IMG/VR virus record: IMGVR_UViG_2718217789_000006
Reading direction: 5' to 3' (one strand)
Origin: a virus
Lineage: Duplodnaviria; Heunggongvirae; Uroviricota; Caudoviricetes
DNA length: 64,000 nt
The notes below the pieces were generated by a model. That model was given only the letters and a program-made list of their open reading frames with translations. It was not told the origin of the DNA and ran no database searches. Below, piece by piece: positions 61,973 through 62,722 of this stretch. A program made the translations under genes and the position numbers. Position 1 is the first letter of the stretch, and each line of letters starts with the position of its first letter.

Positions 61973-62342
61973 CGCTGATTCGTCTTTACAGTTACATAGG
62001 GTTACTACTCATAGATATTAACGGAGTTGATGATGGGCAATCGTGCAACATTGTATTGTATGTAAAGGCAGAGCTCCGAATTTTACTGTTGTAAGTGGGC
62101 CTGGCGGGAATGGTATCGCCAGCATCATTGGCTTGGGTCCAGTAAAAAGAGACGCAGAAAGATGCACAATAGGCACTACGCGTCATGCATGGATTAGGTC
62201 GCTCATCATTTACACAGTACTGCTAAAAAATTATTAAGGAAAGCGCGGCACTTCGTATGTAAGAGCGTGTCGCGGTTGGCTGGTGAACTTTCGATAGTGC
62301 GAGTATTGAATGATTTCCAGCCGTTACCGATTTACGTGTTTA

Positions 62343-62585
62343 TTAGCGAACAAACCACTCGTCAGCAGACTCCCAGGTATCTTTCAGCGTCTCCTGAACA
62401 AAAGTTTTTGCAGAATCTTTATCGGCGGTGCGAGTAACTGAAAGGCCATCGTTGCTGGTGGATTTGATGATCACTTCTACATCGTCATAACGTTTACTGA
62501 CACGTCGCAGCATTTCTTGTTGCAGGGCAGGAACAGAACCTTTTGGCATTTTGTTTATTTTGGCTGCGGGGTATCTGTGGGGCAT
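62343..62585 (-). CDS. DinI-like protein
   Basis: Identical to 16441..16683. Confidence 0.7.
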
Positions 62586-62700
62586 ATATGGGACATAAAA
62601 AGGCCTCAAATAAACAGCAAAATCGAGATTAGGGATTTTTAGAAAAAATACAACCATCTGAAAAAACTTAGAAAACACCCAAAAACCCACAGAATAGTAA

Positions 62701-62722
62701 AAAACATCTATGAATTATGGAT
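62701..62722. other. Phage attachment core (attR of prophage B) overlapping the ydfJ start codon
   Basis: End of the ~480-bp repeat; shared sequence ...TCTATGAATTATGGATTTC includes the ATG used by the downstream transporter gene. Confidence 0.5.

Follow-up and report, generated by a model that had tools for sequence, protein, structure and literature searches.

The ydfJ-like open reading frame (ORF) at the right-hand end of the window (the whole 64,000-nt stretch of DNA analysed here) is, with high probability, the remnant of a host transporter gene that has been truncated at its own Met29 codon by the right end of a Qin/PPydfJ-type prophage, and it is likely dead. As such it is an already known, ordinary and published kind of gene truncation by a prophage, with no new mechanism involved. 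The window comprises the right 16.8 kb of one prophage (P2), followed by a complete second prophage of ~45.9 kb (P3, 16824-62725) and then chromosomal ydfJ. Alignment with an unoccupied attB and with K-12 attL and attR places the insertion at the same position as Qin, with the core TGAATT(T)ATGGATTTC in ydfJ codons 26-31. Judged by this alignment, the site is assigned to the Qin / Sp11-Sp12 ("PPydfJ") site and the elements to the Qin/PPydfJ-type lambdoid prophages. Over 60600-62800 the window matches many E. coli O157:H7 genomes at 100% identity, strain 9000 and the UK Z-series among them.

A direct-repeat scan of the window combined with alignment revealed that 16337-16823 and 62240-62725 align at 97.5% identity across 484 columns, with a single 1-nt indel, confirming that the 486-487-bp repeat is real and far beyond chance. 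The first-pass annotation had placed the distal copy at 62245-62722; the repeat does exist, but it starts at ~62240 and ends at 62725, with ATGGATTTC spanning 62717-62725. Both copies terminate in ...CATCTATGAATTATGGATTTC and share the 15-bp ending TGAATTATGGATTTC. The two different continuations that had been described are likewise present in the sequence. On the 3' side of the internal repeat follows aagagtcattcaatc..., the 3' flank of the minus-strand integrase gene (16861-18156); read from the shared end onwards the bases are aagagtcattcaatctaa..., and the stop of the integrase ORF is reached 37 nt on. The distal copy continues as cagttatattcgc..., that is, as ydfJ. According to the same direct-repeat scan, the repeat is one among many long segments, spaced ~46.3 kb, that are common to the two related tandem ~46-kb prophages.

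The repeat is best read as a conserved right-end module, of which each tandem member would carry one copy at its right end, and which would consist of a dinI-like gene, an att arm and a 15-19-bp att core. The upstream prophage P2 ends on the right with the internal copy (16337-16823), and P3 with the distal copy (62240-62725). The two dinI-like genes (16441-16683 and 62343-62585, both on the minus strand, 80 aa) have the same sequence and are annotated by RefSeq as 'DinI-like family protein', for the second copy in the O157:H7 record. The latter copy has a Pfam DinI match (1.2e-17); its NCBIfam match, to PRK10597 (5.6e-14), stays below the cutoff of that model. An att arm of ~130 nt lies 3' of the gene, followed by the core TGAATTATGGATTTC, which is found at both ends of P3. 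At 16809-16823 it forms an attP-like hybrid site at the P2/P3 junction, as seen from the junction alignment, and at 62711-62725 it forms the attR core, which by comparison with the attB of an unoccupied genome contains the ATG at 62717-62719 that is codon 29 of ydfJ.

The origin of this ATG is evident from the prophage-free genome GZ04-0083, where the gene order is ynfA-rspA-rspB-ydfJ-ydfI and ydfJ is 1368 nt long, encoding 455 aa. Here the sequence around the ATG is ...GCGCTTGAATTTATGGATTTCCAG, read in frame as GCG CTT GAA TTT ATG GAT TTC CAG (A L E F M29 D F Q), and the true start of ydfJ is located 84 bp upstream. The ORF in the window (62717-64000, + strand; 427 aa, MDFQLYS...) holds codons 29-455 plus the stop, and is thus N-terminally truncated, falling short of the 455-aa orthologues by 28 residues. 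The attB of the unoccupied genome reads cgcTTGAATTTATGGATTTCcag and the phage att form ctaTGAATT-ATGGATTTC; they have in common 11 perfectly matching base pairs (TTATGGATTTC) within a 15-19-bp imperfect core, in agreement with the 18-19 bp published for the PPydfJ att (PMC8112680). In split genomes the left and right ydfJ fragments overlap at query positions 142-160. Just 5' of the ATG, K-12 has TTT, the host form, in attL and TT, the phage form, in attR, which puts the strand exchange either inside the ATG-containing core TTATGGATTTC or to its right. As the ATG is carried by attB and attP alike, no new start codon comes from the phage, and the earlier proposal that the prophage supplies the start codon of the transporter gene is contradicted: the codon is the gene's own internal Met29. 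The accompanying statement that integration occurs at the very 5' end of ydfJ is correct in so far as the prophage lies near the 5' end, but the insertion is 84 bp inside the coding sequence. No prophage-free locus with ydfJ starting at this ATG was found among the 74 species loci or the unoccupied genomes inspected.

The enzyme expected to act at this site is encoded directly inside the left end of P3. The integrase gene (16861-18156, minus strand) is apparently intact, and its 431-aa product matches Pfam Arm-DNA-bind_2 (6.7e-24) and Phage_integrase (5.1e-19) and shares 94% identity with the IntQ remnant of K-12, by which it is classed as a tyrosine integrase of the IntQ type. It is followed by a putative excisionase gene (18176-18427, minus strand; 83 aa, Pfam DUF1233 at 1.6e-31). 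From the anatomy of the junctions we infer that this integrase would recombine attP with attB inside ydfJ codons 26-31 (TTGAATTTATGGATTTC), whereby P2 and P3 would come to share the attP-like junction at 16809-16823 and the last prophage to abut ydfJ at 62711-62725. For PPydfJ of the O26:H11 strain 11368 an attP junction has been detected by PCR (PMC8112680). Directly to the left of the module the two prophages carry different cargo, with three NleG-family effector genes in P2 (14138-16279) and an NleC zinc protease gene in P3 (60986-61972, + strand). These cargo names derive from Pfam, as does that of the excisionase; searches of the cargo ORFs and the excisionase against NCBIfam returned no matches. 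A 63-aa ORF without a family match precedes nleC. The tail-fibre gene at 58966-60285 (see also the region 13361-14056) has a long region of collagen-like Gly-X-Y repeats together with an internal repeat spaced at 99 nt (59740-59969), and is near-identical in P2 and P3.

In the O157:H7 strain Z570 (NZ_CP062771.1) the array has three members, with a third prophage, P1, to the left of the two in the window. The right end of P1 carries the same module and junction (9968-10359 of the locus L004), and the two internal junctions, P1/P2 and P2/P3, are base-for-base identical through right arm, core and integrase flank. An exchange between related prophages, by homologous recombination or segmental replacement, could also have produced the internal copy, rather than a second integrase-mediated insertion into a resident attL or attR. 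In favour of this, P2 and P3 share many near-identical segments ~46.3 kb apart; deletions and segment replacements have been documented in ydfJ tandem prophages (PMC9997748), as have inversions between ompW and ydfJ prophages (PMC8112680). However, both internal junctions are exact attP-like sites, identical between P1/P2 and P2/P3, and the different cargo to the left of the module (three nleG genes versus nleC) is as expected for separate phages entering one core. The recombination route is thus regarded as unlikely, and the conclusion on ydfJ is the same whether integration or recombination produced the internal copy.

The outermost left border of the array has a different structure. Instead of an attL, the matching O157:H7 genome (NZ_CP062771.1) has a fusion here, in which rspA breaks off after ~86 nt and runs on into the middle part of an integrase gene. 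The fusion region was located at L005 12306-12640, and the P1 module and junction region at L004 9968-10951. Neither the 5' 84 nt of ydfJ nor rspB could be traced within the window or over the 90 kb that lie left of it in the matching genome, and an attB-spanning query has one matching place in O157:H7 records versus two in K-12. The 5' piece of ydfJ, rspB and most of rspA have thus been deleted in this O157:H7 lineage, and because of this deletion excision of the prophages cannot restore ydfJ. The order of events would then be that integration parted ydfJ from its first 28 codons, its ribosome-binding site and its presumed transcription from the rspA-rspB side, and that a further deletion removed the 5' fragment together with rspB and most of rspA.

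The part of the protein that was lost is highly conserved. The N-terminal extension is present in 74 of the 80 species-representative loci, and residues 19-48 (SGWLGTALEFMDFQLYSLGAALVFHEIFFP) as well as R8, T10, D12, L13, A16 and A17 are invariant in 74/74 enterobacterial species loci. The truncation removes these six single residues and the ten invariant residues SGWLGTALEF (19-28) directly before Met29; a feature of the MHS family is consequently absent from the ORF, namely a complete N-terminus in which SGWLGTALEF, preceding MDF, forms the conserved beginning of the first hydrophobic segment. A Kyte-Doolittle profile gave one broad hydrophobic stretch at approximately residues 14-46; 19 residues of the first segment are kept, and the profile is too coarse to judge membrane spanning by these. 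For the rspAB-ydfJ-ydfI cluster, L-gulonate and sugar acids of the hexuronate type are candidate substrates. As a remnant of an MHS-family MFS transporter the ORF is still recognized by TIGR00883 (metabolite/H+ symporter), scoring 452.1 bits against a cutoff of 443.45; the match covers model positions 7-400 versus 1-400 for the intact protein, the first six positions being lost. A PDB sequence search with intact YdfJ gave no match at E<=1e-5. One further candidate, a replacement N-terminus carried by the phage as e14 does for icd, was rejected: an in-frame TGA is located two codons upstream of the ATG at 62717, and nothing resembling the lost peptide is encoded in the upstream frame.

In O157:H7 as in K-12, all 427 codons of the ORF are open. 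Relative to an intact allele, with which the K-12 copy agrees fully, the ORF of the window shows 10 synonymous and 2 non-synonymous changes. The divergence is tiny and mostly predates the insertion, and dN/dS consequently says little on decay; a short time since insertion could explain why no sign of decay is seen. The sequence comparisons suggest that the ORF is, most likely, a remnant that is either not expressed or without function and that is open only because Met29 falls in the core. Existing annotations treat it in two ways: PGAP labels the identical O157:H7 sequence a pseudogene ('incomplete; missing N-terminus'), and the curated K-12 record lists a 427-aa CDS, 'putative transporter YdfJ', from the same ATG. 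The reading given in the first-pass annotation corresponds to the latter convention and not to a new mechanism.

The choice of target may also be viewed across genera. In Leclercia sp. (L046), Scandinavium hiltneri (L074) and Silvania hatchlandensis (L032), unrelated DNA abuts ydfJ at codon 29, at approximately locus position 1500. From these junction sequences, it appears that other genera harbour different elements that target this same invariant stretch, and the use of the same codon-29 point by unrelated ends fits a site chosen for an invariant stretch of a conserved gene. Two loci from outside this group were also encountered. A contig assigned to a 'Caldithrix sp.' MAG (L007, SMXE01000224.1) contains a Qin/ydfJ junction of the K-12 type, its YdfJ remnant being 100% identical, and a locus assigned to 'Chryseobacterium sp. 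18061' (L067) contains an enterobacterial-type ydfJ with 82% identity; in both cases the probable explanation is an enterobacterial contig present as a contaminant or under a wrong label.

The phage end had further been proposed to provide upstream signals. Anti-SD pairing upstream of 62717 amounts to +0.4 kcal/mol versus -2.9 at the native start, and a promoter consensus scan gave no sigma-70-like match on the + strand in 61970-63000, so that the proposal finds no support at this level. Likewise, a promoter and terminator consensus scan of 60500-63000 detected nothing in or after the repeat, with the caveat that weak or non-canonical signals could escape such simple promoter and SD scans. In the intact locus no promoter- or terminator-like site was found between rspB and ydfJ; the gap is 57 nt, and this short distance and the absent signals are consistent with intact ydfJ presumably being transcribed from the rspA side. 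For K-12 ydfJ, the 28-codon truncation and the loss of the promoter have both been stated explicitly (PMC6379469). In combination, we infer that both the function and the transcription of ydfJ were lost upon integration.

Conversely, the prophage end could act as a portable 5' end, which by providing start codon and signals would yield a working, shortened YdfJ under phage control, e.g. via read-through from nleC or from a late/tail operon. The same consensus scan found no terminator-like site between nleC and ydfJ, and read-through transcription is thus possible. The ORF is open from the core ATG and undecayed, it remains above the TIGR00883 cutoff, and the K-12 reference annotates the same 427-aa CDS. 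Moreover, the Keio ΔydfJ strain displayed an azithromycin-resistance phenotype in one screen, in which the second resistant strain was ΔyhdW, a knockout of another uncharacterised ('orphan') transporter (PMC9405208). Against this, the ATG was already present in attB as internal codon 29, the ten invariant residues just upstream of it are gone, the phage end offers neither SD pairing nor a promoter-like site, and the module between nleC and ydfJ holds a gene on the opposite strand. The effect seen in the screen may also be unspecific if yhdW is, as we assume, a pseudogene in K-12. Finally, the unrelated ends at the same point in other genera argue for a conserved target, not for the building of fusions. 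A portable phage 5' end is accordingly considered quite improbable, and the chance that a functional, phage-controlled YdfJ product exists is at best equally small; that a Δ1-28 YdfJ is translated from the core Met29 on read-through from effector or late genes and keeps transport activity appears the most doubtful of all. Were it nevertheless true, ydfJ, and perhaps ydfI, would have been rewired to prophage or virulence regulation in most E. coli with a prophage at this site.

Under the favoured interpretation, a gene truncated at its own Met29, the significance of the junction is limited mainly to correct annotation. An ORF that opens inside an att core can mimic a phage-donated start codon when it is in fact an internal Met of a truncated gene. 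The situation is common: a phage-end/ydfJ junction of this kind was found in 3182 complete E. coli genomes (59%), and an uninterrupted attB region in 2009 of 5426 (37%). The ydfJ of K-12, of O157:H7 and of the ~59% of complete E. coli genomes concerned should be treated as a 5'-truncated remnant, and the 427-aa K-12 'YdfJ' is not the native protein.

Among known systems, the closest parallel in K-12 is Qin (ydfJ b1543 / ynfP b4534 / intQ), which shares both insertion point and core, with attR ...gtgaattATGGATTTCcag and attL ...gaatttATGGATTTCaagagtcat. NC_000913.3 annotates ydfJ b1543, 427 aa, from this very ATG, and the Qin feature overlaps its first 9 nt. However, Qin is a ~20-kb decayed remnant, whereas the tandem prophages described here are full-size (~46 kb) and carry T3SS effector cargo. 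The right end of Qin also lacks the dinI-like gene, and of the module no more than two segments, query 17-94 and 326-483, align with it, at 79-85% identity. These pieces were located at L003 2815-3086 and L006 6230-6420, marking Qin as a decayed relative of the window prophages. A further difference concerns the other side of the insertion, as K-12 has kept the 5' fragment (ynfP) and rspAB, which are deleted in this O157:H7 lineage. The orphaned 5' piece of K-12 corresponds to the detected small protein YnfP, MTIEK...EFMDFKSHAC (PMC6001520).

Nothing of substance separates the window from the PPydfJ clusters of EHEC O157:H7 (Sakai Sp11-Sp12 region), of which it shows two members, the array in Z570 comprising three. 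In O157:H7, clusters of 2-4 prophages at ydfJ have been described, with nleG variants or nleC as cargo near the right end (PMC8112680), and two tandem lambda-like prophages at ydfJ have been reported in a study that also cites work on deletions in the Sakai Sp11-Sp12 region (PMC9997748). Prophage insertions that rebuild the end of their target, such as e14 at icd and those at tRNA-gene att sites, are similar in having an intragenic att core and, at one junction, host bases replaced by the core copy of the phage. At tRNA-gene att sites, the phage carries a duplicate of the whole displaced gene end. This is likewise the case for e14 at the 3' end of icd, where the full-length product is kept (PMC6379469). 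In contrast to both e14 and the phages at tRNA-gene sites, the ydfJ prophages carry only the 15-19-bp core, and the 28 upstream codons are not replaced.
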